Notes: generated by a model not told the origin, from the letters alone. A DNA stretch of 64,000 nt from an uncultured bacterium (GCA_964403795.1 CAYOHP010000008.1:16987-80986); one strand, 5' to 3'. Counted from the stretch's first letter, positions 1-17,020 are shown. A program made the numbers and translations.

Positions 1-8
1 TAGCTACG

Positions 9-455: not shown

Positions 456-461
456 GGAACC

Positions 462-959: not shown

Positions 960-1021
960 GGGTCCGGAGGCGGACGCAACCGGATTGCCGAAGGCTTCGG
1001 GAGCCGGTCCGGCGGGTCGTG

Positions 1022-1753
1022 TCAGGCGAGACCGGCTGCCAGCGTCTCGGCGACCAGCTCGCAGAGGTCCTTCCAGGCCTTCCCCCCGCGGCGGACGAAG
1101 CGCTGGTTGGACTCGATCTCGATCCCGAGGTACCGGGTGGCCGGGAAGCGCTTCCGAAGGTAGGTCGTGAACCCGTCCGAGATCCCCTTGAAGGGATAGT
1201 TGCGGCGGATCCGGAGGTCGGGGCGGGCACTTGCCATGGCCGCGGCCCAGGCATCGCAGAAGCGCTTCTCGCCCGGGCGCCGGGGGTCGTAGAGGAGCGA
1301 GACGTCGGCCTCCCGCACCACCCCCCGACGCACCGGGGTGAAGCTGTGGACCGCCAGGTGGACCACCGTGGCCCCGGCCTCGACCAGGCCTCGGATCTCG
1401 GCCTCGACCCGATCCCGGTGCGGCCGGTAGTGGCGCTCCACGATCCGTTGCCGCTCCGCCTCGGGCAGCTTCCAGGTCAGCTCCGAGAACACCGAAGGAT
1501 GATGGAGGCTCCGGTTCAGGTCGATGAGCAGCCGGCTCACGGTGGCCGGGAATAGCGGCGCCCCGAACCGGGCGGCCAGCTCCTCGGCCATCTCCAGGGC
1601 GCCCTGGTCGCGCCCCCGATGGCTCTCGAGCATGGCGCGCTTGCCGGCGAAGAGCGGCTTCCAAGGGTCGGGGATCCCGCACCCGCCGTGCTCGCAGGTG
1701 AGGACCAACGAGAACCGGCCGGTGGCCGGAGTCGAGGACCGTCGCCGGGTCAC
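1022..1753 (-). CDS. N-formylglutamate amidohydrolase family protein (FGase-like, PF05013-type).
   Basis: The translation FSLVLTCEHGGCGIPDPW...LIDLNRS...HSFTP...YLGIEI matches the FGase family pattern, including the TCEHGG motif. A GTG start at 1751-1753 overlaps the stop of the upstream LysM gene (GTGA). Confidence 0.6.
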   Translation of the reverse strand: MTRRRSSTPATGRFSLVLTCEHGGCGIPDPWKPLFAGKRAMLESHRGRDQGALEMAEELAARFGAPLFPATVSRLLIDLNRSLHHPSVFSELTWKLPEAERQRIVERHYRPHRDRVEAEIRGLVEAGATVVHLAVHSFTPVRRGVVREADVSLLYDPRRPGEKRFCDAWAAAMASARPDLRIRRNYPFKGISDGFTTYLRKRFPATRYLGIEIESNQRFVRRGGKAWKDLCELVAETLAAGLA

Positions 1754-2598
1754 GGGGAAGGTACCGCCAGGTCCATGCCGGGGCGCAGGCCGACCCCCGG
1801 CTTGGTGAGATCGGGATTGGCCTTCTGCAGGGCCTCCACGGTGACGCCGTACTGCTTGGCGAGACCGTACAGGCTCTCGCCCTGCTTCACCTTGTGGGTC
1901 CGTCCCGGAACCGGTGCCCCGGAAGCGCGGGCGATGGCCTCCCGGAGCTTCCGGTTCTCGGCGTCCACCGCCTCGAGCATGGCCTGGAGCCGGCCCTCGA
2001 AGGCGGTGCGATCCTTGTCCTGCTGCTGGCGGAGTCCCCCCAGCTCGGTGCGGATCGCGACCAGCGACTCGTTGAACCCGGTCGAGAGCGAGGTCATGTA
2101 GGCCCGGAGCTGGTTCAGATCGACGGCCAGCGCCTCCGCCTCCTGGCGATGGCGGGTGCGGTCCTGTTCCAGGGAGGCGGACAGGGCCTCGAGACGCTTC
2201 TCGACCCGGGACCGGAAGTCCTCGGCGGCCCGGTCGGACCCCTCCCGGTGGCGGGTCAGGCCGGTCTCGAGCTCGCTCCTCAGGAGCCCGATGCGTTCCT
2301 CCAGGTGGCGGGCATGCTCGACCCGCTCCTTCAGCGCCTCGGAGATCCGGTCCACCGCCTCGAGGGCGTCCTTGATCTTCTGGGCCGCCACCGCCTCCCG
2401 GCTCGCCAGCGCCAGTTCGAGGGCATCGAGGCGCTGCTTCTCCCGCGAATGGGCGAGGGCGGTCCCGGTGGCCGGTCCGGCGGCAGCCGCCAGGAGCAGG
2501 ACGAGGAGCCGGATTCCGGAGTGGCCTGGCGGGACGAACACCACCGGGACCGAGCCCCATGCCCCCCTCGAACCGGGTCGAGGCGGGGTCACCGGCAT
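1750..2598 (-). CDS. Secreted coiled-coil protein with a C-terminal LysM peptidoglycan-binding domain. It sits in the position of CpoB/YbgF downstream of pal.
   Basis: Signal-like N-terminus (IRLLVLLLAAAAGPATGTALA). The central part is a long heptad-like Ala/Glu/Arg/Leu region. The C-terminal LysM signature is HKVKQGESLYGLAKQYGVTVEALQKANPDL. The start overlaps the pal stop (TGATG). Confidence 0.7.
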   Translation of the reverse strand: MPVTPPRPGSRGAWGSVPVVFVPPGHSGIRLLVLLLAAAAGPATGTALAHSREKQRLDALELALASREAVAAQKIKDALEAVDRISEALKERVEHARHLEERIGLLRSELETGLTRHREGSDRAAEDFRSRVEKRLEALSASLEQDRTRHRQEAEALAVDLNQLRAYMTSLSTGFNESLVAIRTELGGLRQQQDKDRTAFEGRLQAMLEAVDAENRKLREAIARASGAPVPGRTHKVKQGESLYGLAKQYGVTVEALQKANPDLTKPGVGLRPGMDLAVPSP

Positions 2599-3254
2599 CA
2601 GGTGCCTCCCGGCGCGGTGCCGCTGGCGACCCGGAAGTGGGCCCTGCGATTCTGCTTCCAGACCTCTTCACCCCGGCCCGGGACCGCGGGTCGCTCCTCG
2701 CCGAAACTGACGGTGGCCAGCCGATCCGGAGCGATCCGCATGGCGGCCAGGAACTCGCGCACGGCCAGGGCCCGCTTCTCGCCCAGGACGAGGTTGTAGG
2801 CCGCGGTTCCCCGGGAATCGCAATGCCCCTCGATCACCAGCATGGCCCTGGGATTCGCCAGCATCCAGGCCCCGATCCCGGTGAGGACCTGGCGGGTCGC
2901 GGCCGAGAGCCCGTAGCTGTCGAACTCGAAGAACACGTCCCGGAGCACCGAGGCGTCACCGCCTCCCATGGGATCCAGGGACGGATCGTCGAGGGTAGGG
3001 TCCTCGCCGGAGGTCGACGCCGGCTCCCGGTAGCGCGAGTAATCGACCGGCGTCTCGCCGAGCGGGAGGTCGCCGCTCCGGATCCCGCCGCGTCCCTCGG
3101 AGCCCTCGGTGTCGAACACCGGAGCCGGGGTCGGGGAGGCCTCGGGAGGGCGCTGGCCCACCTGGGGGTCGGCGCGATCGCCGCGGCCTCCGCATCCGAG
3201 CGACACGATTCCGAGCAGGCACGCCAGGGCACGCGAGGTCGGGAACCTGTTCAT
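2598..3254 (-). CDS. pal: Peptidoglycan-associated lipoprotein Pal (OmpA-family C-terminal domain).
   Basis: Lipoprotein signal with lipobox (LGIVSLGCGG). The OmpA-like domain reads FEFDSYGLSAATRQVL...LVIEGHCDSRGTAAYNLVLGEKRALAVREFL...ERP. It lies immediately downstream of tolB. Confidence 0.9.
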   Translation of the reverse strand: MNRFPTSRALACLLGIVSLGCGGRGDRADPQVGQRPPEASPTPAPVFDTEGSEGRGGIRSGDLPLGETPVDYSRYREPASTSGEDPTLDDPSLDPMGGGDASVLRDVFFEFDSYGLSAATRQVLTGIGAWMLANPRAMLVIEGHCDSRGTAAYNLVLGEKRALAVREFLAAMRIAPDRLATVSFGEERPAVPGRGEEVWKQNRRAHFRVASGTAPGGT

Positions 3255-3283
3255 GGAGACCCTCTCCCGGCGGAAGCAGCCGA

Positions 3284-4573
3284 TCAATACGAGACCTTAC
3301 ACCAAGTCGGATCGCGCACGCCGGCGAGCGCCGGTAGGGGAATGGAGTAGCGATTGGAGGGTCGACGCGCATCCACGACCTCGAGCCGGGCCACGCCCTG
3401 TCGGGTCGAGGCGACGACCAGATGGCGATTGTCGGGAGCCCAGTCCAGCGCCTCTTCCCCCTCCGACCCGTCGGTCACCTCGAAGAAGGCGGAGTCCGCG
3501 AACCGGTGCACCCGGACCCCGAACCCGCGCGGCCCGCGGGCAGAGAAGGCGAGGAGGTCCCCGCGCGGCGACCAGGCCGGGTTGACGCACTCGTCGGAGG
3601 AGTCGAACCCGTGGGTCAGGCGCCGGGGAGGATCCCGGCCTTCGACCTCCAGCACGTACACCGCCGGAGAACCCGCCCTATCGCTCACGAACGCGATCCG
3701 CGACCCGTCGGGGGACCAGGTCGGGGAGAGATCGTTGGCCCGGTGCGAGGTCAGGCGCCGCCGCACCCTGCCGGTCAGGTCGAGGAGGTAGATCTCGGGA
3801 TTCCCCTCGTAGGAGAGCACCGCGGCCACCTGGGAGCCGTCGGGGGACATCGCCCCCAGGGTGTTCAGGCCGGCCCTGGCGCTCACGATCTGGTTCCGGC
3901 CGCTGACCGGGTCGAAGAGCATGAGCTGAGGGAAGTCCCGGGGATAGGCGGTGTAGAGGAGCCACCGGTGGTTCGGTGCGAACCGCGGGAAGAGGCACTC
4001 GAACGGCCCGGAGACGATGCGCTTCAGGTCGCTGCCGTCGGGGGCCGCGGTGTGGAGGGCGGGCTTGCCCTGGTGGTCGGCGACGAAGGCGAGCACCGTG
4101 CCCGCCAGCCCCGCTTCCCCGGTGAGTTCCCGCACCAGGTCGTCGGCGAAGCGATGGGCGGCCAGGGCCAGACGCCCACCCTCGAGCCGGTACTCGCGTC
4201 CGAACTGGCGGACACCATCGCTGGAATGCAGGTAGCCGCGCAGCAGGATGGCACCGGCATCGTCCCGGACCTCGGAACTCACCAGGAAGCTGGCGGCAGC
4301 CGGGACCTCGGAGGGAAGGACCCTGGCAGGATCGGCGGGAGGGGGACCCGCCAACGGGATCCGCTCGAACCAGTGCGACCGTTCGAGGTCGCCCGTGACC
4401 AGGGCGTCGAAGCGCACCGCCAGGGAGGGATCCCCGGCCGGGGGAGCGATCGCGAGCCGGATCGCCCGGTCGCCCGAGACCTCGATCACACCCCGCACCT
4501 CGGCCCCGCAGACGATCGGGAGGATCAGACCGAGGGCGATCGCCAGCCCCTGAACGCGGTCCTTACGCACCAT
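3284..4573 (-). CDS. tolB: Tol-Pal system periplasmic beta-propeller protein TolB.
   Basis: Signal peptide, TolB N-terminal domain, and repeated beta-propeller blades (SPDGSQVAAV, SPTWSPDGSRIAFVSDRAG, NPAWSPRGDLLAF). It is located between tolA and pal. Confidence 0.9.
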   Translation of the reverse strand: MVRKDRVQGLAIALGLILPIVCGAEVRGVIEVSGDRAIRLAIAPPAGDPSLAVRFDALVTGDLERSHWFERIPLAGPPPADPARVLPSEVPAAASFLVSSEVRDDAGAILLRGYLHSSDGVRQFGREYRLEGGRLALAAHRFADDLVRELTGEAGLAGTVLAFVADHQGKPALHTAAPDGSDLKRIVSGPFECLFPRFAPNHRWLLYTAYPRDFPQLMLFDPVSGRNQIVSARAGLNTLGAMSPDGSQVAAVLSYEGNPEIYLLDLTGRVRRRLTSHRANDLSPTWSPDGSRIAFVSDRAGSPAVYVLEVEGRDPPRRLTHGFDSSDECVNPAWSPRGDLLAFSARGPRGFGVRVHRFADSAFFEVTDGSEGEEALDWAPDNRHLVVASTRQGVARLEVVDARRPSNRYSIPLPALAGVRDPTWCKVSY

Positions 4574-4628
4574 GGTCCTCGCTTCCGGTCCAGGACGAGT
4601 CTCCCCGATGCCGGGCCCCGGTGCAAGG

Positions 4629-5738
4629 TCAGCGGACCACGAACACCAGGAAGAAGTCCTCGCCCGATTCGCCGCCGAGCTTCTCGGGGAGAGGACGGAA
4701 GGGAGCCGAGCGCTCCACTGCGGTGCGGGCCGAGCGGTCGAGACGATCGTCGCCCGAGGGCCGGGTCACCCGGAGATCCGAGAGCGAGCCGTCCCTCCCC
4801 AGCCGGAACCCCACCTCCACGGAGAGGTCGGCACCCAGAGCCGCTCGGGCCGGTCGTTGCCAGGCGGCGCCGAGCCGGGTGGTCAGCAGTTCCAGGTACC
4901 AGTGGACCGAAGGATCGAGCGCGCCCGCGACCCGCACCCCGAGTTCCTGGCCCGGGGCTTCCGGGCCGGGCCCGGTGGAGGTCGGTCTGGTGACGGCCGC
5001 AGGCGGGAGCGGGAGTGCCGCAGCGGTCGAAGTCTCGGCCGGAGGAGCGGCAGGGGTGGAGCTCCGGGTCGGAGCGGGCGGCGGGAGCGTCAGGGACCCG
5101 GGAGGCGGCGGCAGGGGGAGCAAGGGCTCGAGGGTGGGAGCCGGACGAGCCGGCGTCGAGGGCGTAGCGCCCGTCCAGCTCGGATCGCCCAGGAGTCGTT
5201 CCCGGAGCGAGGCACCGAAATCCGGGGGAGGCACCGGCTTGCGCACCGGGGCCGCTGCCGGGGTCGCCCGGGGCGCGGCCGCCGGCTTCGGTGTGGGCGC
5301 GGTCGGGCGGTTAGGGGCCTTGGAGGTCGGAACCGGGGCGGGCCGGGGGGCCTCCTTGGAAGCCGGGGGCGCAGGCGGGGCCGCCGGAGGGGCGGGAGGC
5401 GCGGCAGGCGGCACCGAAGCGGCCGGGGGCGGAGGTGCAGGCGGTGCGGGCGGAGCCGGAGGAGGTGCCGAAGGTGCGGCGGGAGGTGCCGGGGGAACCG
5501 GAGGGGCCACCGAAGGAACCGGCGGGGCGGGGCGGGAGACGGGAGGCGCGGGTCGGGCCGGGGTCACCGGCGGTCGAACGGTCGGAGCCGGCGGTGCGGG
5601 TCGCGGCAGCGCCCCGACGAAGCGGACCGGGATGGGCTTCGGCCTCTCGGTCACCGGGGGTGAGAGCCAGGTCGAGAGACCCATCGCCCCGAGGACCAGG
5701 GCATGGAGTCCCAGACTGAGGACCAGGCCTTCCCGCAA
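4629..5738 (-). CDS. tolA: TolA-like protein: N-terminal TM anchor, Pro/Ala-rich linker, and a TonB/TolA C-terminal domain.
   Basis: N-terminal TM (LVLSLGLHALVLGAMGL). The central linker is extremely Pro/Ala-rich. The C-terminal domain (VHWYLELLTTRLGAAWQRP...LSVEVGFRLGRDGSLSDLRVTRPSGDDRLDRSARTAVERSAPFRPLP) is TolA/TonB-like. It sits between tolR and tolB. Confidence 0.8.
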   Translation of the reverse strand: MREGLVLSLGLHALVLGAMGLSTWLSPPVTERPKPIPVRFVGALPRPAPPAPTVRPPVTPARPAPPVSRPAPPVPSVAPPVPPAPPAAPSAPPPAPPAPPAPPPPAASVPPAAPPAPPAAPPAPPASKEAPRPAPVPTSKAPNRPTAPTPKPAAAPRATPAAAPVRKPVPPPDFGASLRERLLGDPSWTGATPSTPARPAPTLEPLLPLPPPPGSLTLPPPAPTRSSTPAAPPAETSTAAALPLPPAAVTRPTSTGPGPEAPGQELGVRVAGALDPSVHWYLELLTTRLGAAWQRPARAALGADLSVEVGFRLGRDGSLSDLRVTRPSGDDRLDRSARTAVERSAPFRPLPEKLGGESGEDFFLVFVVR

Positions 5739-5740
5739 GG

Positions 5741-6154
5741 TCAGGGCTCCTTCGTGGCCAGCGCCAGGCGGGTCAGCCCGACCCGACGCAGCACGTCCAT
5801 CACCTCCACGACCCGGCCGTAGGCCAGGTCGCGGTCGGCGAGCAGGATCACGTCCGGTTCCGAGGCGCGACGGGCGATCAGTTCGCGGGCCCGCGCCTCG
5901 AGCTCGGAGAGGGTGGCGGGACGGCCCTCGAAGTGGACGTCCCCGGCCCGCGAGACCACCACGTTCACGGCGTCGTCGGTCCGGAGGTCCTTGGGGTCGG
6001 CGCCCGGGAGCTGGAGGGTGAAGCCCTGGTCGATCACGGGAGCGATCAGGATGAACACGATGAGCAACGTCATCATGACGTCGATCAGGTTGGTGAGGTT
6101 GATCTCGGCGATCGGGCGGCTGGGCCCGGACTCATCCCTGAGGAGCCTGCGCAT
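5741..6154 (-). CDS. tolR: Biopolymer transport protein TolR/ExbD.
   Basis: ExbD/TolR signature INLTNLIDVMMTLLIVFIL (single TM) with a periplasmic domain. It follows tolQ. Confidence 0.9.
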   Translation of the reverse strand: MRRLLRDESGPSRPIAEINLTNLIDVMMTLLIVFILIAPVIDQGFTLQLPGADPKDLRTDDAVNVVVSRAGDVHFEGRPATLSELEARARELIARRASEPDVILLADRDLAYGRVVEVMDVLRRVGLTRLALATKEP

Positions 6155-6172
6155 GGGGGACTCCCGCGCCGG

Positions 6173-6856
6173 TCAGGCGCGGCTCCCCTCGCCGGCCACG
6201 GCGGGTGCGCGGCTGGCCTCGACCGCACACAGGAAGTCCATGGCGAAGGACTTCATGCGGGTGACCGCCAGGCGGATCTGGCTCGAGACCAGGTTGTGGC
6301 CGACCAGGGCGGGAATGGCGACCGCCAGTCCCACGACCGTGGTCACCAACGCCACCGTGAGGCCGGGTGCCACCGCCTTCAGGCTGGTGGTCCCATGGAC
6401 GTTCATGTCGTGGAAGCAGAGCAGGATTCCCCAGACGGTCCCGAACAGCCCCAGCAGGGGGCTGACGGAAGCGATGGTCCCGAGCACCCAGAGACGCATC
6501 TCGAGTTCGAGGGCCTCGTGCTGGATCGCCATGGCCATGGAGTCCTCCACGTCCATCAGCTCCTTGGGACCGACCCGCCCCAAGGACTCGATCCGCCGGC
6601 AGCCTGCCGCATAGATCCGCCCCAGCGGACCCCGCGCCTCCTCGGAACCGGGCGGCCCCGGGTGCAGGGCCCGCGGCTCGGGAGTGGCGGCGAGCTGGGC
6701 CGAGAAGCGACGTCCGGCCACCGCGGCCCGGCGCAACCCGACGAGCTCGCCGAGCAGGATCGACCACGAGGCGATCGACATCGCCCCGAGGACCAGGAGC
6801 ACGACCTGCGAGAACGCGTCGCAGGCCAGGAAGGCCTTGGTGAGGATCGAGATCAT
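6173..6856 (-). CDS. tolQ: MotA/TolQ/ExbB proton-channel protein TolQ.
   Basis: Three-TM ExbB/TolQ architecture with the conserved C-terminal helices (VAPGLTVALVTTVVGLAVAIPALVGHN). It is the first gene of the tol-pal cluster. Confidence 0.9.
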   Translation of the reverse strand: MISILTKAFLACDAFSQVVLLVLGAMSIASWSILLGELVGLRRAAVAGRRFSAQLAATPEPRALHPGPPGSEEARGPLGRIYAAGCRRIESLGRVGPKELMDVEDSMAMAIQHEALELEMRLWVLGTIASVSPLLGLFGTVWGILLCFHDMNVHGTTSLKAVAPGLTVALVTTVVGLAVAIPALVGHNLVSSQIRLAVTRMKSFAMDFLCAVEASRAPAVAGEGSRA

Positions 6857-6875
6857 GGGTTCGGGGTGCCTCCCG

Positions 6876-8513
6876 TCAGAGCTGGAACATGGACGAGTAG
6901 TCGGCTCCGCCCCCGGCCATCGGGCCGCCGAGCGGGTCGTCGCCGAAGTCGAGGTCGCGGTCGCGGCCGCGGGTGGAAGCGGATCGCGCCGGGGCGCGGG
7001 TGGCGGCGGCCGGCGGGGATTCCGGGATCCCGGTGGACGCGACGGAGGGCGCGGGCGACGCGACCGGTGCCGTCCGGGCGGAGGGCGGAGGCATCGGCGG
7101 GAGCGGGCCGTCCGGCCCCGGTGCCGGGGTGCGGGCCGCGGCCGGCGGGGGTGGCGGCAGCGAGCCCGACGCCGGCCCCGGGGCGCCGGTGGCGGCGGCG
7201 ACCGAGGTGCCGAGGGCCGCGGCCCCCGAGGCCGCGGCGGATCCCGCTGCCCTGGTCGCGACCGCCGCCAGCTCGGCCGGGACGGTCAAGGGAGGCGCCG
7301 GCAGGGAGAGGCCGGGGACCGAGGCGGGAACCGGGTCCCACCGATCGTTCTTCCACCCGCCGCGCCGGGTCGGCCGGGAGGCGGCCGCCACCGGAGGGGA
7401 CGGAGGCGGCGGCGCGACCGGGACCCCCGAGGCGATCGGGGCGGCTTCGGGCCGACCCGAGGTCGGGGTCGTCGGGAGCGGCAGCGCCAGCGCGGGAGGA
7501 TCCTCGTCCCGGTGGTCGGGAGCCGAGGGGCTCTCCGGTCCGGGTGCGGGGCCGTACTGGCCCTTGGCGAGGTCGAGGAGGGTACCCACCGCCTCGCCCA
7601 CATCCTTGGTCTGGCTGGCGCCGCGCAGGCGCTTCCTCAGGTCGGCGGCCAGGCGCCGGGCGTCGGCGGGAGGCTGGGTGCGTCCCGGCTCGCGGCGGAG
7701 CCCGTCGGCACTGGTGGCAAGGGACTCGCCTTCCCGGAGCACACGCGTGTCCTGGCCGTACCGGGCGTCGACCCTGCCGGAGAACACCTCGATCTCCTCG
7801 GCGCCGCCGGGTACCGCCCGGATCCGCACCACCGCCGACCGCATCGCGAACTCCGCCCGGGGGGTCAGGATCTCGAAGCGCTGGCCTTCACGGCGCCAGT
7901 CGACGAGGACCTCGCCTGCCTCGAGGACCAGGGCGTCCCGCTGCAACTGGACCCGGGTCCCGGGCCCCACCGCGACCGCGGCCCGGGTGTCGAGCTCCAG
8001 CACGGTCCGGGCCGACTCCCCGGTCCTCAGCCAGTCATGGAACCAGAGGGCGTCGCTCCGACCCACCCGGGATGGCCCGCGAGCCCCGGAACGGACCACC
8101 TCGCCGGGGGCGTCGGACGAGAGCTTCGCCGCCACTCCCAGGTGGCGGGTGGCAGACGGAGCCCGGGTCCCGGCGTCGAGGGGTACCGCGAACTGGTACT
8201 CCCGGAAGGCGCCCGAGGCGACCCGCCGGGAAACCCCGGTCCGGGTGATCGCGTACTCGGAGCCCGGGAGCAGGCTGACCGCGCCCGAGTCGAACAGGGC
8301 CAGGTTCGCCCGGGTGCCTTCGGCCACCTGCAGGCGATCCCCGAGTTCGATCCGGGCGAAGTCGAGGACGTCCCGGGCGGTCCGACCCAGCGACGCCACC
8401 GACACCTTGCCCTCGAGGACCCGGAGGCTCCCGGCCATGGGAGCGGCCAGCAGACCGGCTCCCGGGAGCAGCGCCGGGAGGATCGCGAGCAGGGGGACGC
8501 GGCGGGGGTTCAT
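6876..8513 (-). CDS. Secreted FecR-domain protein with a long Pro/Ala-rich C-terminal region.
   Basis: Signal peptide (LLAILPALLPGAGLLAAP). The N-terminal ~250 aa have the FecR-like beta-rich pattern (GKVSV...GDRLQVAEGTRANLALFDSGAVSLLPGSEYAI). The ATG at 8511-8513 overlaps the stop of the upstream CHASE2 gene (ATGA). Confidence 0.6.
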   Translation of the reverse strand: MNPRRVPLLAILPALLPGAGLLAAPMAGSLRVLEGKVSVASLGRTARDVLDFARIELGDRLQVAEGTRANLALFDSGAVSLLPGSEYAITRTGVSRRVASGAFREYQFAVPLDAGTRAPSATRHLGVAAKLSSDAPGEVVRSGARGPSRVGRSDALWFHDWLRTGESARTVLELDTRAAVAVGPGTRVQLQRDALVLEAGEVLVDWRREGQRFEILTPRAEFAMRSAVVRIRAVPGGAEEIEVFSGRVDARYGQDTRVLREGESLATSADGLRREPGRTQPPADARRLAADLRKRLRGASQTKDVGEAVGTLLDLAKGQYGPAPGPESPSAPDHRDEDPPALALPLPTTPTSGRPEAAPIASGVPVAPPPPSPPVAAASRPTRRGGWKNDRWDPVPASVPGLSLPAPPLTVPAELAAVATRAAGSAAASGAAALGTSVAAATGAPGPASGSLPPPPPAAARTPAPGPDGPLPPMPPPSARTAPVASPAPSVASTGIPESPPAAATRAPARSASTRGRDRDLDFGDDPLGGPMAGGGADYSSMFQL

Positions 8514-9661
8514 GCAGCCAGCCTCTCGGTTCCACGGTCCATGGCGGCCCTCCCGGCGACGCCACCGAGCCGGGTGGGCGGGGAGAAGGACGCTCCCAGG
8601 CGCACCGGATCGGTCGCCGACGCCAGGACCGGCGAGGTCATCCCGGCCCGCCGCAGGGCGGCGACCAGGGGACCGAGGAAGGCGCCGAGCAGCAGGGCCA
8701 GGGTCGGACCCCAGGGATCGATCAGCAGATCGGCCCAGACCAGCAGGAGCAGGCTGGCCAGCGAAGGACTCGCGACCCCCGCCAGGAGGACCGGGAGGGC
8801 CGCCCCGCCGAGACCGGGAAGCAGGACTCCCAGCAGGGCGAAGCCGGCTTCGATCCCCAGGACCAGGCCGGGCAGGGGGGGAAGCTCCAGCACCCGTCGC
8901 CCGGCGAGGAGCTGGGCCGTGGCCTGGGCGTGGAGGGACCGGGAGCCGCCCGGCTCGACCAGCACGATCCGGCCCGCCAGGGAGGAATCGGGACGCTCCA
9001 GGCGACGGCCCAGGCGGGCCCTGGGATCCCCGGAGGCGAGTTCCTCGTCGGAGAGGCCGAAGGCCCGGGCCTCCGAGGGCGGGATCGCCTCGGGGTCGTC
9101 GAGCCGGGCCTCCAGGCGCTGGTACTGGAGAGCCTCGCCCAGGACCTCGACGAAGGGACGCACCTCGATCGCCCCGAGGGCATCGACCGAGAAATCGAGC
9201 GGGGACCGGGGCCAGCCGCGGACCGGTCCGCCCATGGCCTCCACGGCTCGACGAGCCGGCGAGGCGCGGTCGAAGGGATAGCGGACCAGGGCTTCGCCCT
9301 CCCCGGGAGCCAGGGTCTCCGAGGGCTCGGCCACCACCACCGAGGCCGCTCCGGCGGCCTCCAGGTAGTCGACCACCGAACCCATCAGTCCGGGAGGCCA
9401 GGCATCCCTGGGTCCCAGTTGATCCTCAGTGGTCAGATCGGACCCGATCTCCACGACCAGCAGCCGGTCGAGCCCGCCGGCGGGGCCATGCCACCAGGAG
9501 CGGGCATCGAAGGCTACCCGGCCCGCGCCCTGGGCGAGGAAGCCGGGTGCCGGGACCCGCTGGGCAGCGGCCACCGCGGCCGCCACGGCCACGCCCAGGG
9601 CCAGAGCCCCGGGGCGGCCCGGTTCGGACCGGATTCGATCACGGGAAGGGTTTCTCGTCAC
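8510..9661 (-). CDS. CHASE2 sensor-domain membrane protein with no cytoplasmic output domain.
   Basis: N-terminal TM is followed by CHASE2 hallmark stretches (DRLLVVEIGSDLTTEDQLGPRDAWPPGLMGSVVDYLEAAGAASVVV). The C-terminus carries three TM helices. Proposed GTG start at 9659-9661. The 5' part of the 488-aa ORF looks like GC-frame noise. Confidence 0.55.
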   Translation of the reverse strand: MTRNPSRDRIRSEPGRPGALALGVAVAAAVAAAQRVPAPGFLAQGAGRVAFDARSWWHGPAGGLDRLLVVEIGSDLTTEDQLGPRDAWPPGLMGSVVDYLEAAGAASVVVAEPSETLAPGEGEALVRYPFDRASPARRAVEAMGGPVRGWPRSPLDFSVDALGAIEVRPFVEVLGEALQYQRLEARLDDPEAIPPSEARAFGLSDEELASGDPRARLGRRLERPDSSLAGRIVLVEPGGSRSLHAQATAQLLAGRRVLELPPLPGLVLGIEAGFALLGVLLPGLGGAALPVLLAGVASPSLASLLLLVWADLLIDPWGPTLALLLGAFLGPLVAALRRAGMTSPVLASATDPVRLGASFSPPTRLGGVAGRAAMDRGTERLAA

Positions 9662-9780
9662 CTCCCTTGGAACATCGGCAGACAAGGACGGACGTCGAAG
9701 CGCACCGACCCGGCACCCCGGGGAGGGCTCGCGGTCGCGGCACCGGGAACCGCACCCGGGGGCGCGGCTCCCGGCCTTCC

Positions 9781-11028
9781 TCAGTCGGTCCCTCCCAGGG
9801 TCGACCGGGACCCCTGGCTCTCGAGGAAGCGCACCACGTCGTCGAAGTGGCGGGACTCGATCCCGCCGGTGCGCACCCGGTGCTGGTCCCGGAACCCTCC
9901 GCCGTCGAAGATCCACAGCTCCCGCTGGCGGAGGCCCCAGGACGAGACCACCTGGAGGTGGCGGTAGTCGCCCCACCAGACCAGGGGCACGTACTTCATC
10001 ATCGCCATGCGCAGCGCGGTGTGGGAGCGGTCCGAGAAGCGGCCGCCCGAAGGCGATTCGGTGGCCAGGATGGCGGCGTTCAGGTTGGCCTTGGCCCTCA
10101 GCATGGCGAGCGCGAACCGGACCGAGGTGGGCTTGACCAGGGTGTCGAAGATCGAGGTCGTGGTGTAGCGGTACAGGATCCAGCCTGTGAGGCTACGGCG
10201 CTCCTCGTCGGGGTTGGCGGGCTTGATGCGCTCGCGCTCCAGGATCTGCCGGGCCTCGGCGGCGTCGGCCAGGGCGGCGTCGAGACCCGCCAGGTAGCGG
10301 TCGGAGAGCGGCTCGGCGACCGAGACCGACAGGTGGGTGCCGCGTCGGACACCGGACGAGGTGGGAAGGCCGACAGGGCGCGCCTCCCATCTCGAGGTGA
10401 GGAGCGGGCGCGACTGCGAGTCCCTCCAATGGGGGCCGTTGTAGAACATGCTGCGGGCCCCGGCCCAGCCGTGGAGCTGGTCGTGGAGGGTGGCGAGCCG
10501 CACCGATTCGAGTCGGGCCTCGAGGGCCCAGGCGGGCTCGTCGCGGGCCTCCATGGTGGCGAGGGTGCGGTGGGCGGCCTGGAGCTTGCCGTTGGCCGCC
10601 AGGATCGCGGCCGAGAGGTCGTCCGCCAGCCGGACCGCCCGGTTGTAGCGGGCCAGGTCGGAGAAGCCGAGCTTGTTCCGGCCCGAGTCCGACTGGTACT
10701 CGGCGGCCCGGTAGATCTCGGCGTAGAGATCCATGGCGGAGACCAGCTGCCGGTCGGCTTCGGCGAGGTCGGCGACGACTCCGTCCCAGTGGGGGGACAC
10801 GGGATGGGCCCCGGCGTGCAGGGGGAAGCCGCCTCGCCCGTCGCCGGTCCCGGTTCCGGTGCCTGCGGCTCCTGCCGCGCCCGGGGGCAGGGCCACAGGA
10901 GTCCGGCCATCGCCGGTTCCGGAGGCCAGGTCTTCGAAGCCGAGCTGGGCGGGACACGGGGGGGGGAGGGAGAGCAGGAGTGCCAACAGGAGCGAGGAAG
11001 AAGGGATCGAGGGTCGCATCGTTTCCAT
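9781..11028 (-). CDS. Hypothetical secreted protein (signal peptide, no recognised domain). It is the first gene of the CHASE2/FecR/tol-pal gene string.
   Basis: METMRPSIPSSSLLLALLLSLPPPCPAQ is a signal peptide. It is followed by ~390 aa of non-repetitive sequence with good coding-like composition. Confidence 0.5.
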   Translation of the reverse strand: METMRPSIPSSSLLLALLLSLPPPCPAQLGFEDLASGTGDGRTPVALPPGAAGAAGTGTGTGDGRGGFPLHAGAHPVSPHWDGVVADLAEADRQLVSAMDLYAEIYRAAEYQSDSGRNKLGFSDLARYNRAVRLADDLSAAILAANGKLQAAHRTLATMEARDEPAWALEARLESVRLATLHDQLHGWAGARSMFYNGPHWRDSQSRPLLTSRWEARPVGLPTSSGVRRGTHLSVSVAEPLSDRYLAGLDAALADAAEARQILERERIKPANPDEERRSLTGWILYRYTTTSIFDTLVKPTSVRFALAMLRAKANLNAAILATESPSGGRFSDRSHTALRMAMMKYVPLVWWGDYRHLQVVSSWGLRQRELWIFDGGGFRDQHRVRTGGIESRHFDDVVRFLESQGSRSTLGGTD

Positions 11029-11349
11029 CCGGTTCCGAGAACCTTCGAGGCAGAAGCCGGGAGTCCGGCGTTGGGCTGCTCCTCGCACGACCCATGCCAG
11101 GACCGTCGATGCCGGACGGGGAACCTTCCGGGGATCGAGAGGTGGCTACTCAGGTTCGTGAACCGTGCCTGCCTCGGCCCATTCCGGATCGATTCAGGAT
11201 GTCAAGCCATGCGGCGAGCGTCGCCCATTTTCGCCCAATCCAAGGATCCCAGTGGCGATCCGGGCGATTCCGGGGCACACTGGAAGGGCAGGTGTCGCCT
11301 CGACTCCGCTCGCGGAGCTGGACGGCGACCGGCCCCACGGAGGTTCGAG

Positions 11350-12546
11350 ATGGCGGGTTCCGATCTTCCCGGCGGATCCGACGGCCTCGACCCCACCGCG
11401 TCCCGGACCGAAGCCACGGTGGAGGTGGAGGCGTCCCGGCAACCTTCCGGTGCGGGTTCCGGTGCCGGCCCCGGACCGGGGGGCAGCCTCTCGGGGGACA
11501 TGACCGGACCCCGGGCCAGCGAGCACTTCGTCGAGTCGACCAACGAGGACACCATCCCCTCGGAGGTCCTGGGTCGGCGGATCTGCGACTTCCTGCTCAC
11601 CATCGACGAGAGCCCGCTGGCCCCGGTGATCCGCCGCTTCCAGGAGGAGCTCCTGGGCCGGGGCATCGACAAGCTGAAGCCGGTCTTCTACCTGACCGAC
11701 GAGTGGGGAGTCCCGGACGGCACGGTGGCCATCGGGATCCCGTTCTACCTGGCCGATCCCGCCCTGCGGCGGGTGCATGAGGCCAGGGTCGGGCTGGTGG
11801 AAGGTACCGACGACGAGGACCTGCTCCGCTACCTGCGCCACGAGATGGGCCACGTCGTGAACTACGCCTACCGCCTCTACCAGACCGAGGACTGGACGGC
11901 GCTGTTCGGGCCGATGGCCCGGCCCTACGTCGAGGACTACGTCTCGATCCCCTTCAGTCCCGACTACGTGCGCCACCTCCCCGGGAACTACGCCCAGAAG
12001 CACCCCGACGAGGACTGGGCCGAGACCTTCGCGGTCTGGATGACCCCCGGCCTCGATTGGCGCGGCCTCTACGAGGATTCCCCCGGCGCCCTGGCCAAGC
12101 TCGAGTACTGCGACCGGGTACTGGCCGAGTCGGTGAAGCGGGAGCCCGAGGTGGTGGTGACCACCCTGCTGACCGACGTCACCGAGATCGACCAGACGGT
12201 CCAGGAGTTCTACGAGCACTTCCAGCTCGGCACCGTGCGGGTGCCCCGCAGCCTGGACGGCGACCTGCGCGGGATCTTCATCCCCAACGACCCGAACCTG
12301 CGCCAGGGCGTGGCCCACATGCTGCTCCGGCGGCAGCGGGACTCCTTGGCCGCCACCGTGTACCGCTGGACCGGGGTCGACCCGAGCTTCACCCAGGAAC
12401 TCCTCCACCACCTGATCGCCCGCGCCCGGGCGCTGGACCTGGCCTACCACCTGAACGAACGCGACACGGTGCTGGTCCAGGTCTCGAGCTTCCTCACCAC
12501 CCTGGCGATGAACTACGCGTACCGGGGGAAGCCGATACCTTCTTAG
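11350..12546 (+). CDS. Putative zinc-dependent metallopeptidase (HExxH motif; 'putative zinc-binding metallopeptidase' type).
   Basis: The only non-noise part of the 1857-aa ORF 6973..12546 is its C-terminal ~400 aa. These contain LRYLRHEMGHVVNYAY (HEMGH) and, downstream, DEDWAETFAVWMTP, which could be a third zinc ligand. The exact start is uncertain (ATG 11350, or later at MTGPRASE). Confidence 0.6.
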   Translation: MAGSDLPGGSDGLDPTASRTEATVEVEASRQPSGAGSGAGPGPGGSLSGDMTGPRASEHFVESTNEDTIPSEVLGRRICDFLLTIDESPLAPVIRRFQEELLGRGIDKLKPVFYLTDEWGVPDGTVAIGIPFYLADPALRRVHEARVGLVEGTDDEDLLRYLRHEMGHVVNYAYRLYQTEDWTALFGPMARPYVEDYVSIPFSPDYVRHLPGNYAQKHPDEDWAETFAVWMTPGLDWRGLYEDSPGALAKLEYCDRVLAESVKREPEVVVTTLLTDVTEIDQTVQEFYEHFQLGTVRVPRSLDGDLRGIFIPNDPNLRQGVAHMLLRRQRDSLAATVYRWTGVDPSFTQELLHHLIARARALDLAYHLNERDTVLVQVSSFLTTLAMNYAYRGKPIPS

Positions 12547-12563
12547 TTTGGCGGAGGGGGGTC

Positions 12564-12800
12564 GGTGCCCCCCTCCTGCACCTTCCCCCACTTTCCCGGG
12601 TCTGGCTGGTTGGACCTTGGCGCCTGCCGGCGGCTGGCCTGGATGGTCCATGGCAGCCAAGAGCCAGCGGGCCGAGGCTACGCCTCGTCACGCTGGCGTT
12701 GACGAGGGTCGTACGGCCCCGGTGCCCCCCTCCTGCACCTTCCCCCACTTTCCCGGATCTGGCTGGTTGGACCTCGGCGCCTGCCGGCGGCTGGCGTGGA
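12564..12800. repeat. Two ~80-bp imperfect direct repeats about 157 bp apart, with an 8-bp-stem hairpin between them, in the 3'-3' intergenic region.
   Basis: Copy 1 (12564-12643) and copy 2 (12721-12800) both read ggtgcccccctcctgcaccttcccccactttcccgg(g/a)tctggctggttggacct(t/c)ggcgcctgccggcggctggc(c/g)tgga, with 3 mismatches. Between them, cctcgtca-cgctggcgt-tgacgagg forms a perfect inverted repeat at about 12693-12717. Confidence 0.8.
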
Positions 12801-12808
12801 CCTTGCCC

Positions 12809-14490
12809 CTACAGGCCGTGCCAGGGAGGGGGGCGACCCAGGGGGGAGAACTCCGGCCGGCGGGCCAGGTAGGTGGGGCGGTGGGCCAGGAAGGCCTTGT
12901 GCTCGGCCTTCACCGCAGCCGAGACCTTGAAGCCCCGGGGGGCCTTGTCGAGGGCGGTCCAGAGCAGCGGCATGATCCGGTGGCGGTGCCACTCCATCGG
13001 ATCCCGGTCCTGGGACCCGGGACGGGGATCAGAGGTCGCGGCCTGGTGGACGTATTCGACGAAGCGGTCGATCACCTCGTGGGCGATCACCGCCCGCTCG
13101 CCCCGGGGCAGCACCCTCCAGGCTTCCCAGAAGAGGACCCCCGGCTCCAGGAAATCGGTCTTGATCCTTCCCCCGCTCGCCTCCAGGGTCGCTGCCCGCG
13201 CCTCCCGCCGCAGCCGTCCGAGCAGCGCCGCGCCTCCATACCGGCGGACCGTCTCCTCCCCGTCCATGAGCAGGAGGTCCTGGGCCAGGGTCGGCACCAC
13301 CGTCACATGCGGGTTCGCCATCAGCCAGCGGGCGTGGTTGGTGTAGAGGAGGAGCGACTCCACGAAATCCCGGGCGCTCGACTTGCACACCTGGCCTCGA
13401 TACTCCCAGGTCGCCTCCCGGTAGACCATGGCGAGGTCCAGCGGTGCGTCGTACTCGGGCACCCGCGCCTCGTCGAGGACCTTGTCGCTCTTCACGTGGC
13501 ACTCGCCGGCGATCTGCAGCCGGTTCAGGTTCCCCTCGCCGTACCGCCCGATCTGGTCCGGCCGGTACCCGGTCTGGCGCACATGGGCCGACTGCCAGTA
13601 CCCGCAATGGATGACCTGGGCGCGCTTGCGGACCGCCCGCCCGAAGGCGAAGTTGGTCTGGAACACCTCGCGAGGCGAGCCCACCGGCCCGGTGCGCGGG
13701 TCGACCAGACCCGGAGGCGGATTGGCAGCCGGTCCCCAGCCCCGGTCCCAGATGGCGTTCTCGGACGTCAGCGTCCCCACCGCGGAAGGATGGAAGCCGC
13801 CTTCCCAGTACGCCTCGATCAGCCGACGGAAGGCGTCGTAGCGCTTGCGGGTGGCCCGGAACGGCCGGTCGTCGGGATTGGGGAAGTCCATCACGAAGCA
13901 CGAGAGCTCGGGATGGTTCAGGCGGGTGGCGATGTCGTCGACCAGGAGGCTCCCCACCATGAAGGTCTTGGCCGAGATGCTGAACTGGCAACCGCCGTGG
14001 AGCAGGGTGCCGACGAGTCCCAGGCTGGCGGGCACGTCCCAGATGTAGGCCTGCAGGAAGTCCACGAACTCGTCCAGGTGGAACCACTCGAGCGGGACCG
14101 GCTTGATCGAGAACTCGATGGTCTCGGGGTCGGTCGTGACCCTGACCTTGAGATCCCGGTGACCCGGCTCCCGGAAGCGGAACCTGAGGCCCTGGCGCCG
14201 GAATCCCCAGGGGTCCTTCTCCTTGCGCAGGTGCACGCTGCCGAACAGGCTGGTCGGGGCTCCCGCGGCCAGGTCGGCCTGGTAGCGTTCGACGATCCTC
14301 CGGGCGATCCGCTCCTGGAGCTCGAGCATGTAGGGATGCTCGAAGTAGTCGACCTCGCCGCCCTCCCGCGCCGCCAGGTGCTCCCAGAGACGCACCGTGC
14401 GCTTGGACTGGAAGGTCGGCTCCATGCCGATCCAGGCCTGGTCGAACCCCGTGGTGGTGGGTTCGTGGAAGGTCGACAGCACCGCCACCA
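12809..14490 (-). CDS. Large conserved-looking hypothetical protein (~560 aa, cytoplasmic). Function unknown.
   Basis: Long ORF with non-repetitive, balanced amino-acid composition, unlike the GC-frame noise ORFs. No family motif that I can name. Start proposed at ATG 14488-14490 (MVAVLSTFHEP). The upstream 97 codons are Lys/Arg/Gly low-complexity. Confidence 0.5.
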
Positions 14491-14762
14491 TGCGGCTGTC
14501 GTCGGCCCTGGGCCCCGCGTCGCCGTCCCGGACCGGGTGGGTCGGGGCGGCTTCCTCGAGCCTGCGCTTCCTTTCCTTCTTCCGCTTGCCGGGTCGTCCC
14601 CGCTGCTTGCCCACTCGTTTCCCTCGGACCTGGCGTGCCGGCGCCGGCGACGCTCCCGCCCCCATCGTGACCCATGGACCGGCGATCCCCAACCCCGGTC
14701 CCACCTCGAACCTTGACGGAGGCCTCGGGGGGGTGTCGAATCCGGCCCGAACGGAGGCCCCG

Positions 14763-15500
14763 GTGCCGGTCCTCGCGGTCATCCCGGCCAGGATGGAGTC
14801 CCAGCGCTACCCGGGCAAGGTCCTGGCGGACCTGCTCGGAGCGCCGATGATCCTCCACGTCCTCCGGGCCGTGCAGCAGTCCCGGCTGGTCGACAAGGTC
14901 GTGGTGGCCACCGACAGCGTCCAGGTCCAGAGCGTGGTGATCGAGAACGGCGGGGTCGCCATCATGACCCGGAGCGACCACCAGAGCGGCTCCGACCGGA
15001 TCGCCGAGGTGGCCGAGGGCCAGCCGGACTTCGACCTGATCGTGAACGTCCAGGCCGACGAGCCGATGATCAGCCCCTCGGTGGTCGACGAGCTGGTCCA
15101 GGGGTTCGGGACCGGCGAGGGTTTCGTGATGGGCACCCTGGCCCGCAAGATCTCCGATGCCTCCCAGGTGAAGGACCCCAACTCGGTGAAGGTGGTCTTC
15201 GACCGCGCCGGATCGGCCCTCTACTTCAGCCGGGCCCCCATCCCCTTCCGTCGCGGCAAGGAAGGGCCCAGCTACTACAAGCACGTCGGCGTCTACCTCT
15301 TCCGACGCGACTTCCTCCTCAAGTTCCCCACCCTGCCTCCCTCGGCCCTCGAGGCCGCCGAGAAGCTCGAGCAGCTACGGGTGCTCGAGGCCGGGTACCG
15401 GATCCGGGTCGTCAAGACCAACTACGAGAGTCACAACGTCGAGACGGCCGAGGACCTGGCGAAGGTCCGGGAGCTGATGCGGGCCAAGCGGAACCGCTAG
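14763..15500 (+). CDS. kdsB: 3-deoxy-manno-octulosonate cytidylyltransferase (CMP-Kdo synthetase).
   Basis: VLAVIPARMESQRYPGKVLADLLGAPMILHV...IVNVQADEPMI are classic KdsB motifs. Proposed GTG start at 14763. Confidence 0.85.
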   Translation: MPVLAVIPARMESQRYPGKVLADLLGAPMILHVLRAVQQSRLVDKVVVATDSVQVQSVVIENGGVAIMTRSDHQSGSDRIAEVAEGQPDFDLIVNVQADEPMISPSVVDELVQGFGTGEGFVMGTLARKISDASQVKDPNSVKVVFDRAGSALYFSRAPIPFRRGKEGPSYYKHVGVYLFRRDFLLKFPTLPPSALEAAEKLEQLRVLEAGYRIRVVKTNYESHNVETAEDLAKVRELMRAKRNR

Positions 15501-15543
15501 TCCCGGATCCAGGATCCGGGGCCCGACCCCGGGAGAGGCGAGA

Positions 15544-16425
15544 ATGAAGATGCGAACCCGCAGCGTCCGGATCGAGGGCTTCGACATCGCCATCGGGAGC
15601 GATCATCCGTTGTGCGTGATCTCCGGGCCCGACGTGCTCGAGGACCTCGACTCGGCGCTGGTGATCGCCCGCAACGTGAAGTCGCTCTGCGACCGGCACG
15701 GGTTCGGCTACGTCTTCAAGGCCAGCTACGACAAGGGCAACCGGGCCAAGTCGGGGAGCTACCGCGGTCCGATGCTCGAGAAGGGTCTCGCCCTCCTCTC
15801 CCGGGTCCGGGACGAGGTGGGATGCCCGGTGCTCACCGACGTCCACTCGGTCGAAGAGGCGGCGGTGGCCGGCGAGGTCGTCGACATCGTGCAGGTTCCC
15901 GCGTTCCTCTGCATGCAGACGGAAGTCGTGCACGCGGCGGCCCGCACCGGCAGGGTCGTGAACCTGAAGAAGGGGCAGTTCCTCGACCCCTGGGCGGCCC
16001 AGTCGCTCGCCGCCAAGGCCATGGAGACCGGCAACGACAAGATCCTGCTGACCGAGCGGGGCACCACCTTCGGCTACCAGAACCTGGTCTCCGACATCCG
16101 GTGCCTGCCGATCATGCGCAGCACCGGCTGCCCGGTGGTCTACGACCCGACCCACATCATCCGGCGGCCCGGCCTCCCGGCCAGCGCTCCCGAGGGCGGC
16201 CAGCCCGAATTCGTCCCCCATCTGACCCGGGCCGCGGTGGCGGCCGGGGTCGACGCCTTGTTCCTGGAGACCCATCCCGAGCCGCGTCTCGCCGGCTGCG
16301 ACCAGTCGAGCATGCTGCGGCTCTCCTACATGCCCGAGATCCTGGACCAGGCGGCCCGGCTCCACGCCCTGGTGCGGGAGTGGGACCTGGGGATCCGCGG
16401 CCGGGACCAGTACGGCTTCGTCTGA
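15544..16425 (+). CDS. kdsA: 3-deoxy-8-phosphooctulonate (Kdo8P) synthase, paralog 1.
   Basis: GYVFKASYDKGNRAKSGSYRGP (KxNR motif), QVPAFLCMQTE and VVYDPTHI match KdsA along its full length. Confidence 0.85.
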   Translation: MKMRTRSVRIEGFDIAIGSDHPLCVISGPDVLEDLDSALVIARNVKSLCDRHGFGYVFKASYDKGNRAKSGSYRGPMLEKGLALLSRVRDEVGCPVLTDVHSVEEAAVAGEVVDIVQVPAFLCMQTEVVHAAARTGRVVNLKKGQFLDPWAAQSLAAKAMETGNDKILLTERGTTFGYQNLVSDIRCLPIMRSTGCPVVYDPTHIIRRPGLPASAPEGGQPEFVPHLTRAAVAAGVDALFLETHPEPRLAGCDQSSMLRLSYMPEILDQAARLHALVREWDLGIRGRDQYGFV

Positions 16426-16438
16426 TGGGGAACGAGCC

Positions 16439-17020
16439 ATGATCGCGGCGCCTCTCGAACCGGTCCACTCGGGTGCCGCCGGGCGCCGCCACCCCGAGTT
16501 CGAAGCCCGGGCCCGGAGGGTCCGGGTCCTGCTCTTCGACGTCGACGGCGTGTTCACCGACGGGGGAGTGATCCTCGGGTCCGGGGGCTTCGAGTCCAAG
16601 CGCTTCCACATCCAGGACGGCATGGGGATCACCCTGGCGCACCAGGCCGGACTCGAGACCGGGGTTCTGACCGGCAGGGTCTCCGAGGCGGTGGAACGCC
16701 GGGCCCGCGAGCTGAAGATGCGCCACGTGGTCCAGGGTGCCGGGGACAAGGCACCGGCGTTCGCCGCCTTGCTGGCACGGGAAGGACTGGCCGCCGAGGA
16801 AGTCGCGTTCATGGGCGACGATCTCCAGGACCTTCCCGTCATGATCCGGGTCGGTCTCGCCATGGCCCCGGCCAACGGCCGGGTCGAGGTGCGGGACCGG
16901 AGCCACATGGTCACCCACGCCATCGGTGGTTCCGGGGCGGTACGGGAGGCGATCGAAGCCATCCTGGTGGCCCGCGGGAGCTGGGATGGACTGGTCGCGT
17001 CCTACCTGGAGGCGGGATGA
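16439..17020 (+). CDS. kdsC: Kdo 8-phosphate phosphatase (HAD superfamily, KdsC).
   Basis: LLFDVDGVFTDGGV (HAD motif I), GMGITL, and FMGDDLQDLPVM (motif III). It sits between the two kdsA genes. Confidence 0.8.
   Translation: MIAAPLEPVHSGAAGRRHPEFEARARRVRVLLFDVDGVFTDGGVILGSGGFESKRFHIQDGMGITLAHQAGLETGVLTGRVSEAVERRARELKMRHVVQGAGDKAPAFAALLAREGLAAEEVAFMGDDLQDLPVMIRVGLAMAPANGRVEVRDRSHMVTHAIGGSGAVREAIEAILVARGSWDGLVASYLEAG

Follow-up and report, generated by a model that had tools for sequence, protein, structure and literature searches.

In Campylobacterota, a CHASE2 cyclase, a FecR-domain protein, a phosphodiesterase, and a tetratricopeptide repeat (TPR) protein are encoded in one cluster (PMC9239204). 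Burkholderiales and Pseudomonas aeruginosa encode a LysM/FecR protein together with a CHASE2 histidine kinase; the Burkholderia 'BiofilmReg' operon and the P. aeruginosa pair comprise a response regulator, a LysM+FecR protein, the CHASE2 histidine kinase, and a DUF4136 protein (PMC5192318). The CHASE2 cyclases CyaD1, CyaD2, and CyaK of Sinorhizobium meliloti are reported to respond to the ribosomal protein uL2 as a plant signal, which is sensed via the outer-membrane protein NsrA (PMC13001267), and magnetotactic bacteria have a cluster of MtxA and a CHASE2 adenylate cyclase (PMC4439547). The ligands of CHASE2 were still called unknown in 2023 (PMC10581220). Here, we describe a 64,000-nucleotide (nt) stretch of DNA from an uncultured bacterium (the window, with a G+C content of about 72%), in which the genes for a CHASE2-related membrane protein without an output domain (CHASE2_1) and for a secreted FecR-domain protein (FecR1), together referred to as pair 1, directly precede a tol-pal cluster (Table 1).

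The initial annotation of this locus knew of no described system with such an arrangement. The partnership of CHASE2 and FecR proteins had already been published (PMC5192318, PMC9239204), whereas the adjacency to tol-pal and the missing output are indeed unusual. As in the CHASE2-cyclase/FecR clusters (PMC9239204, PMC13001267), a membrane CHASE2 sensor gene stands beside a gene for a secreted FecR-domain protein; however, pair 1 has no cyclase or other output, its CHASE2 is shortened, no phosphodiesterase or TPR gene accompanies it, and it is joined to tol-pal. BiofilmReg likewise has, in a single operon whose spacers are very short, genes for a periplasmic FecR-domain protein and a CHASE2 sensor, but there the FecR protein comes first and a histidine kinase, paired with its cognate regulator, provides the output, whereas pair 1 lacks the kinase, the regulator, and a LysM domain on the FecR protein (PMC5192318). 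MtxA is comparable in that it is a beta-rich accessory protein of the periplasm whose gene adjoins that of a CHASE2 cyclase, although no FecR domain is described for it, its locus does include the cyclase, and there is no link to tol-pal (PMC4439547).

We consider that the locus probably represents a lineage-specific operon fusion (a probability of roughly 55%), in which an output-less CHASE2/FecR pair has been joined to tol-pal and the link between the two would be transcriptional rather than a dedicated sensory circuit. The gene layout reported in the initial annotation was confirmed: the genes from 11028 down to 462 run co-directionally on the minus strand with no strand switch, the first of them, the hypothetical gene (orphan) at 11028-9781, encodes a signal-peptide-like N-terminus, 119 nt separate its stop from the favoured start of CHASE2_1, CHASE2_1 and FecR1 overlap by 4 nt (an ATGA shared by stop and start; gcATGA, 8510-8513), and 19 nt lie between FecR1 and tolQ. 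The G+C content at third codon positions (GC3) was 0.85-0.94 across the genes and far above that at second positions, the pattern of real coding sequence. Identical DNA was present in contigs from three other, independent sequencing runs; hence, the short CHASE2_1 gene is not an assembly artefact. A scan of the window with Rfam gave no matches.

Against the Pfam profile CHASE2 (PF05226), CHASE2_1 scored 13.6 bits (E 0.051), below the gathering threshold of 26.3 bits, with a match spanning only profile positions 13-74 of 257, and it had no match in NCBIfam. An exhaustive HMMER (phmmer) search of 1.84e9 representative proteins returned only CHASE2_1 itself and P0002 (E 1.8e-4), a protein of 664 amino acids (aa) encoded at another locus (L004), which has a CHASE2 domain (1e-35) and a class III cyclase domain (Guanylate_cyc, 2.5e-12). 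BLASTP recovered both conserved CHASE2 blocks between the two proteins (2e-8 and 2e-6), collinear over residues 64-261. The whole alignment was collinear through the N-terminal membrane helix, the CHASE2 blocks, and three C-terminal membrane helices, with two internal deletions of about 60 and 15 residues in CHASE2_1. Hydropathy peaks of CHASE2_1 at residues 18-36 and 263-339 correspond to 1 + 3 membrane segments around a periplasmic domain, and the same pattern was shown by P0002 and by the CHASE2-cyclase of a second pair in the window (pair 2). These results identify CHASE2_1 as a degraded, output-less CHASE2 protein, whose label is drawn from transitive homology via P0002.

CHASE2_1 ends 48 residues past its last membrane helix, and no output domain of Pfam or NCBIfam was found in this tail. 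It therefore lacks the output domain (cyclase, kinase, or GGDEF) that defines CHASE2 receptors, as the initial annotation had claimed. A cyclase remnant in the tail was considered and rejected, with 967 and 465 of 1000 shuffles scoring as well against cyclase domains. Cyclase coding was absent in every frame near CHASE2_1, and the sole cyclase match in the window was at 26210-26842, in pair 2. The public gene call (P0001) starts CHASE2_1 at GTG 9592 (8510-9592, 360 aa), so that half of the first membrane helix is missing. We favoured GTG 9661 as the start because of its conservation with L004, where it aligns with the ATG of the ortholog within the block CTGCCGAT..C.AGGGAG(G/A)TGAC.

FecR1 exceeded the cutoff of the Pfam profile FecR (PF04773), scoring 27.3 against 24 bits over residues 162-248 (profile positions 3-96 of 97). 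Accordingly, of the two domain assignments that had been put forward for the pair, FecR passed on its own score, while CHASE2 missed the Pfam threshold and stood by its homology and collinearity with P0002. FecR1 consists of a signal peptide, a conserved N-terminal part of about 300 aa, a Pro/Ala-rich linker, and a C-terminal motif. Residues 6-24, resembling a signal peptide, are its sole hydrophobic segment. In Escherichia coli, FecI-FecR-FecA is the cell-surface signalling system for ferric citrate. FecR1 has the periplasmic FecR domain (PF04773) in common with that system, but it has a signal peptide instead of the cytoplasmic anti-sigma domain and membrane anchor. Its gene neighbours are CHASE2_1, tolQ, the orphan, and a Peptidase_Mx gene, with no gene for an extracytoplasmic function (ECF) sigma factor or a TonB-dependent transducer nearby. 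A role of FecR1 as a FecR-type anti-sigma factor was rejected, since only the signal-like segment is present and no ECF sigma factor or TonB-dependent receptor gene is close.

The L004 locus carries the closest counterpart of pair 1. There, P0002 is followed by a FecR gene in the same order and with the same 4-nt overlap; its product (746 aa, FecR domain 44 bits) was 39% identical to FecR1 over 204 aligned N-terminal residues (E 7e-37) and shared the C-terminal motif DPLGGP..GAD...FQL. The low-complexity Pro/Ala/Arg-rich linkers differ, with about 220 aa in FecR1 (6876-7613) and 430 aa in L004 (5080-6260). The FecR gene of L004 is directly followed by Prok-RING_1 and FGase genes and has no tol-pal beside it, whereas the window has tolQRAB-pal-lysM between FecR1 and these two genes. 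The FGase proteins of the two loci were 55% identical. On the opposite side of the pair, both loci have kdsB/kdsA, which are divergently oriented to the pair in L004 and which in the window are located a few kb upstream of it (14397-16425). Thus, pair 1 is orthologous to the CHASE2-cyclase/FecR pair of L004. Judged from this homology, pair 1 is an output-less member of a known, widespread CHASE2/FecR module, and both P0002/L004 and pair 2 have exactly the CHASE2-cyclase architecture of the published clusters (PMC9239204, PMC13001267).

Other searches with the two proteins added little. Word-indexed homolog searches with CHASE2_1 and with the FecR1 N-terminus returned the query or nothing, low-complexity Ala/Gly/Pro-rich queries swamping the index. 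A sequence search of the PDB gave only cyclase domains for the CHASE2_1/P0002 alignment, through the P0002 part, and no match for FecR1. In metagenomes, the FecR alignment yielded no relatives and the FGase alignment 21 loci, with CHASE2, FecR, or tol genes near none of them.

The Tol-Pal assignment of the window cluster is solid. MotA_ExbB, ExbD, TonB_2, PD40, and OmpA all exceeded their Pfam thresholds, and the best NCBIfam matches were TolQ, TolR, TolA, TolB, and Pal. These matches did not reach the equivalog cut-offs, which is to be expected in a deep lineage. The canonical operon of Gammaproteobacteria is ybgC-tolQRA / tolB-pal-cpoB. The window has tolQ, tolR, tolA, tolB, and pal in the same order on one strand; it differs in having no ybgC, in having a coiled-coil LysM protein in the cpoB position, and in that the cluster starts behind a CHASE2/FecR pair.

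In a search with TolQ, about 14 relatives that were 48-65% identical stood out as a clade, everything else being below 40%. Every relative with a usable contig was compared, giving seven in-clade tolQ loci (TolQ 48-58% identical), to which two outgroup loci were added. The tolQRAB-pal-lysM cluster was conserved in the relatives, with TolB 40-61% identical. The gene upstream of tolQ was different each time: an AMP-binding enzyme (L016), PGA_cap (L018), a resistance-nodulation-division (RND) pump (L020/L021), a DEAD/DbpA helicase (L022), a HEAT-repeat protein (L023), a SpoIIE/STAS-like protein (L026, judged by eye from the translation and not by a hidden Markov model), and a Ser/Thr kinase-FGE-sulfatase (Pkinase; L027). 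In the outgroup, tolQ was preceded by tolB-pal-lysM in a permuted cluster (L049) and by a Yip1 protein in Eisenbacteria (L050). Neither CHASE2 nor FecR was found upstream of tolQ at any of these nine loci, and tblastn with CHASE2_1 and FecR1 gave no match at any of the seven in-clade ones. Taken with the L004 pair, which lacks tol-pal, the adjacency is unique to one lineage, and the CHASE2-FecR-tolQ synteny for which the initial annotation had asked is not conserved. Measured by the condition that the annotation itself had set, a dedicated system is thereby refuted. A genome-contig scan with TolQ returned only distant Proteobacteria and did not retrieve the source genome itself, and so is uninformative on synteny. 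All these upstream genes were on the same strand as tolQ, with 5-340 nt in between; close neighbours of this kind are therefore the rule here and convey nothing about function.

What sets the window apart is the sequence immediately before tolQ. When the upstream sequences were aligned, an extended -10 motif, TGnTAnnnT, ended 7-9 nt before the tolQ ATG at all seven in-clade loci (L016, L018, L020, L022, L023, L026, and L027), with exactly one occurrence per 200 nt upstream of tolQ. TTGAAC, a putative -35 element, lay 17 nt further upstream in four of the seven, and TGnTAnnnT was kept across upstream G+C contents of 34-79%. Given the usual spacing between a -10 element and the transcription start, the position of the motif implies that the tolQ mRNA of the relatives is leaderless or nearly so, which would be a trait of the clade. 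In the window, TGnTAnnnT was absent from the minus strand of 1-13500, including the 200 nt before tolQ, and tolQ has a GGGAGG ribosome-binding site at a spacing like that of the internal genes tolR, pal, and lysM.

The junction itself can be read from both sides. The last 10 nt before the window tolQ ATG (CCCCGAACCC) resemble those of L022 (TCCCGACCC) and L016 (TCCCGGTCCC); directly upstream of them stands CGGGAGGCA, which is preceded by the FecR1 stop codon. FecR1 and its L004 ortholog have the same 3' end (TTCCAGCTCTGA), and the similarity goes no further than the stop codon. Because the tolQ-like 10 nt and the L004-like FecR1 3' end flank it, the breakpoint of the rearrangement can be placed within about 9 nt, and the proximal promoter of tolQ would thereby have been removed. 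No terminator-like site was found in the FecR1-tolQ spacer. The only two such sites in the scan were inside pal and inside the FGase 5' end just downstream of the lysM stop, and a scan of 1500-12500 for consensus sigma-70 sequences gave no promoter. The co-expression of pair and tol-pal suggested in the initial annotation agrees with a spacer in which neither terminator nor promoter was found. Co-transcription is plausible, and co-expression gains support because the tolQ promoter of the relatives is absent here.

At the upstream end, a stem-loop directly behind the orphan had a predicted energy of -32.3 kcal/mol (40-nt window), the most stable on the minus strand of 1-13000 (mean -13.1, standard deviation 4.3), and is a candidate terminator or transcript boundary. 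On this evidence, the orphan would form a unit of its own, and the transcript with tol-pal would start at CHASE2_1; no counterpart of the orphan was found beside the L004 pair. The block adjoining the CHASE2_1 start codon aligns with the sequence before the ATG of the L004 CHASE2-cyclase gene, which lies there in a divergent intergenic region, and this block may hold the expression signals of the pair itself, including a promoter.

Table 1 Features of the window, with the matches or properties on which each assignment is based
Feature	Position	Strand	Basis or remark
Secreted orphan, 415 aa	9781-11028	-	Signal-peptide-like N-terminus; no Pfam/NCBIfam match
15-bp perfect GC-rich stem-loop (candidate terminator)	9742-9775	-	5 nt after orphan stop; no U tract
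Conserved block CTGCCGATGTTCCAAGGGAG	9662-9681	-	Abuts CHASE2_1 start codon
CHASE2_1, 383-aa polytopic membrane protein	8510-9661	-	Homology to P0002; topology
FecR1, secreted FecR-domain protein, 545 aa	6876-8513	-	Pfam FecR above cutoff
FecR1-tolQ junction, 19 nt	6857-6875	-	GGGAGG at 6869-6874
tolQ	6173-6856	-	MotA_ExbB 2.8e-30; best NCBIfam match TolQ
tolR	5741-6154	-	ExbD 1.7e-22; best NCBIfam match TolR
tolA, Pro-rich, TonB_2 C-terminal domain	4629-5738	-	TonB_2 6.9e-11; TolA_full 3.4e-7
tolB	3284-4573	-	PD40 repeats; propeller_TolB 3.1e-67
pal	2598-3254/3287 (likely start ATG 3254)	-	OmpA 5.7e-18; Pal_lipo 2.5e-31
Coiled-coil + LysM protein	1750-2598	-	LysM 3e-11
FGase-family gene	1022-1753	-	Downstream of lysM gene
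Prok-RING_1 gene	462-959	-	Last gene of co-directional run
FecR2 of pair 2, 388 aa	24741-25907	-	FecR 1.5e-8; GTGA overlap with cyclase gene
CHASE2-adenylate cyclase of pair 2, 980 aa	25904-28846	-	CHASE2 6.5e-34; Guanylate_cyc 2.2e-24

Under the operon fusion that we favour, the ancestral module would have consisted of a CHASE2 sensor with a class III adenylate cyclase and a secreted FecR-domain partner. In pair 1, the cyclase would have been lost and the CHASE2 domain itself shortened. A local rearrangement would then have placed tolQRAB-pal-lysM directly at the FecR1 stop codon, replacing the leaderless-type extended -10 promoter of tolQ with a Shine-Dalgarno site. CHASE2_1, FecR1, and tol-pal would now be transcribed as one mRNA from signals upstream of CHASE2_1, and FecR1 would be exported and, like its counterparts in similar pairs, act together with the periplasmic domain of CHASE2_1. 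Because it has no output domain, CHASE2_1 alone would make no cyclic AMP (cAMP) or other second messenger. CHASE2_1 could then persist in either of two ways. It may be a relic whose reading frame, with that of FecR1, now forms the 5' part of the tol-pal operon, or it may, as an accessory subunit, modulate the complete CHASE2-cyclase whose gene lies 17 kb away. Class III cyclases function as dimers.

It is possible, although we regard it as doubtful, that the adjacency has no consequence, tol-pal having an unrecognised promoter in the FecR1 3' end and the pair being an independent and possibly decaying remnant. Consensus promoters are few in a high-GC genome and may be missed, as the empty scan of 1500-12500 illustrates. 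CHASE2_1 also had the lowest GC3 of the cluster except for the low-complexity tolA (0.85, with 0.88-0.94 in the other neighbours), in addition to its two deletions. However, the high-GC relative L016, with 79% G+C upstream, still has TGnTAnnnT before tolQ, the window tolQ has acquired a Shine-Dalgarno site typical of operon-internal genes, and the open reading frames of CHASE2_1 and FecR1 are intact and translationally coupled.

The initial annotation had proposed an envelope-sensing module that might modulate Tol-Pal. In its strict form, with a pair recruited as a Tol-Pal-directed sensor that signals by contact with TolQR or TolA, we consider this idea unlikely. It could draw on the tight junction, the loss of tolQ's own promoter, the envelope location of both proteins, the coincidence of cyclase loss with fusion, the long Pro-rich FecR1 linker, which possibly spans the periplasm, and the lipopolysaccharide (LPS) and 3-deoxy-d-manno-oct-2-ulosonic acid (Kdo) genes that adjoin both pairs of the lineage and the L004 pair. 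Nevertheless, none of the nine other tolQ loci examined has this arrangement, the orthologous pair of L004 has no tol-pal next to it, and the FecR1 N-terminal domain and C-terminal motif are common to that tol-less ortholog, so that no tol-specific innovation is visible. Proximity alone is uninformative because unrelated co-directional genes occupy the same place in relatives. Modulation of Tol-Pal is thus not supported, with no functional link to Tol-Pal beyond the probably shared transcription unit. A variant in which cyclase loss and tol-pal capture are connected, CHASE2_1 and FecR1 having been co-opted as envelope accessories that contact the TolQR motor or TolA, seems to us improbable; if true, Tol-Pal would receive sensory input from the periplasm in a way that is not known from any bacterium.

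Finally, we hardly credit the view that the CHASE2 call is wrong and 8510-9661 encodes an unrelated polytopic membrane protein, which would fit the low Pfam score, the lack of an NCBIfam match, and the want of a usable structure model, but which is at odds with the CHASE2 domain of P0002, the sole relative in the database, with the collinearity through both conserved blocks and the membrane segments, and with the orthologous downstream FecR gene and its identical overlap in L004.

Several points weigh against the operon fusion. The orthologous pair was carried by only one lineage, that of L004, and it is the degraded CHASE2 score, not a tree, that speaks for a loss of the cyclase from pair 1 as opposed to its gain in other lineages. 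The predicted structures of CHASE2_1 (predicted local distance difference test, pLDDT, 47.8, from a two-sequence alignment) and of the FecR1 N-terminus (pLDDT 36.4, single sequence) are too poor to use. The available contigs show no sequence variation, and CHASE2_1 and FecR1 may no longer be functional. Neither CHASE2_1 nor the orphan is preceded by a promoter that the searches recognised (scan to 12500; TGnTAnnnT to 13500), and a non-consensus promoter could lie inside the FecR1 3' end.

A complete CHASE2-cyclase/FecR pair is also encoded in the window. The cyclase of pair 2 has an insertion of about 300 aa inside its CHASE2 domain, and the pair is followed downstream by a 150-aa orphan (24288-24740) and a 775-aa HEAT-repeat protein (21936-24263). 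Recent paralogy of pairs 1 and 2 was rejected, there being no significant pairwise similarity. The 4-nt start/stop overlap was present in all three pairs seen (the two of the window and that of L004). Both window pairs adjoin LPS/Kdo genes on the plus strand (14397-17020 and 28883-31875): near pair 1 are kdsB, kdsA, and a KdsC-like HAD hydrolase, and near pair 2 are an lpxL-like acyltransferase gene, whose start is 36 nt from that of the divergent cyclase gene, and a Kdo kinase/KdtA fusion. Between kdsB and pair 1 lie two minus-strand orphans with no Pfam/NCBIfam match, one of 657 aa (12809-14782) and the 415-aa orphan of Table 1. L004 has only a 143-aa gene between kdsB and its pair, kdsB-kdsA (L004 744-1496, L005 148-1029) being divergent from the pair.

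The same genome uses TGnTAnnnT, followed by 6-10 nt and ATG, elsewhere, for example at the pair 2 cyclase gene. The motif occurred six times in the window, compared with about 18 expected from base composition, at 28864 (-), 41737 (+), 46420 (+), 59048 (+), 61497 (+), and 14280 (+). In at least three cases, only 6-10 nt separated the motif from the start codon of a long, high-GC3 open reading frame (starts 28846, 41756, and 46435), suggesting that leaderless transcripts are frequent in this organism. In the tol-pal loci, a LysM protein directly followed pal in L016, L018, L020/L021, L022, and L050, and in the permuted cluster of L049 the LysM gene stood after pal but upstream of tolQ. By its CpoB/YbgF position, this coiled-coil LysM protein may be a functional analogue that binds peptidoglycan.

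The components and their pairing are already known, and an output-less, shortened CHASE2 together with a tol-pal fusion has so far been seen in a single uncultured lineage. If the fusion is real, an envelope-maintenance system that has a leaderless promoter in the relatives would here be driven by the promoter of a former cAMP-signalling sensor module. It would then be a clear natural case in which a rearrangement led to regulatory capture and a CHASE2 sensor has survived with no output domain at all. There is no evidence for a general Tol-Pal regulator, and the value of the locus would be mainly that of a well-defined evolutionary case. CHASE2/FecR pairs are common in this uncultured clade, and two by-products of this comparison may prove more broadly useful, namely the leaderless promoter conserved before tolQ and the LysM protein that takes the place of CpoB.

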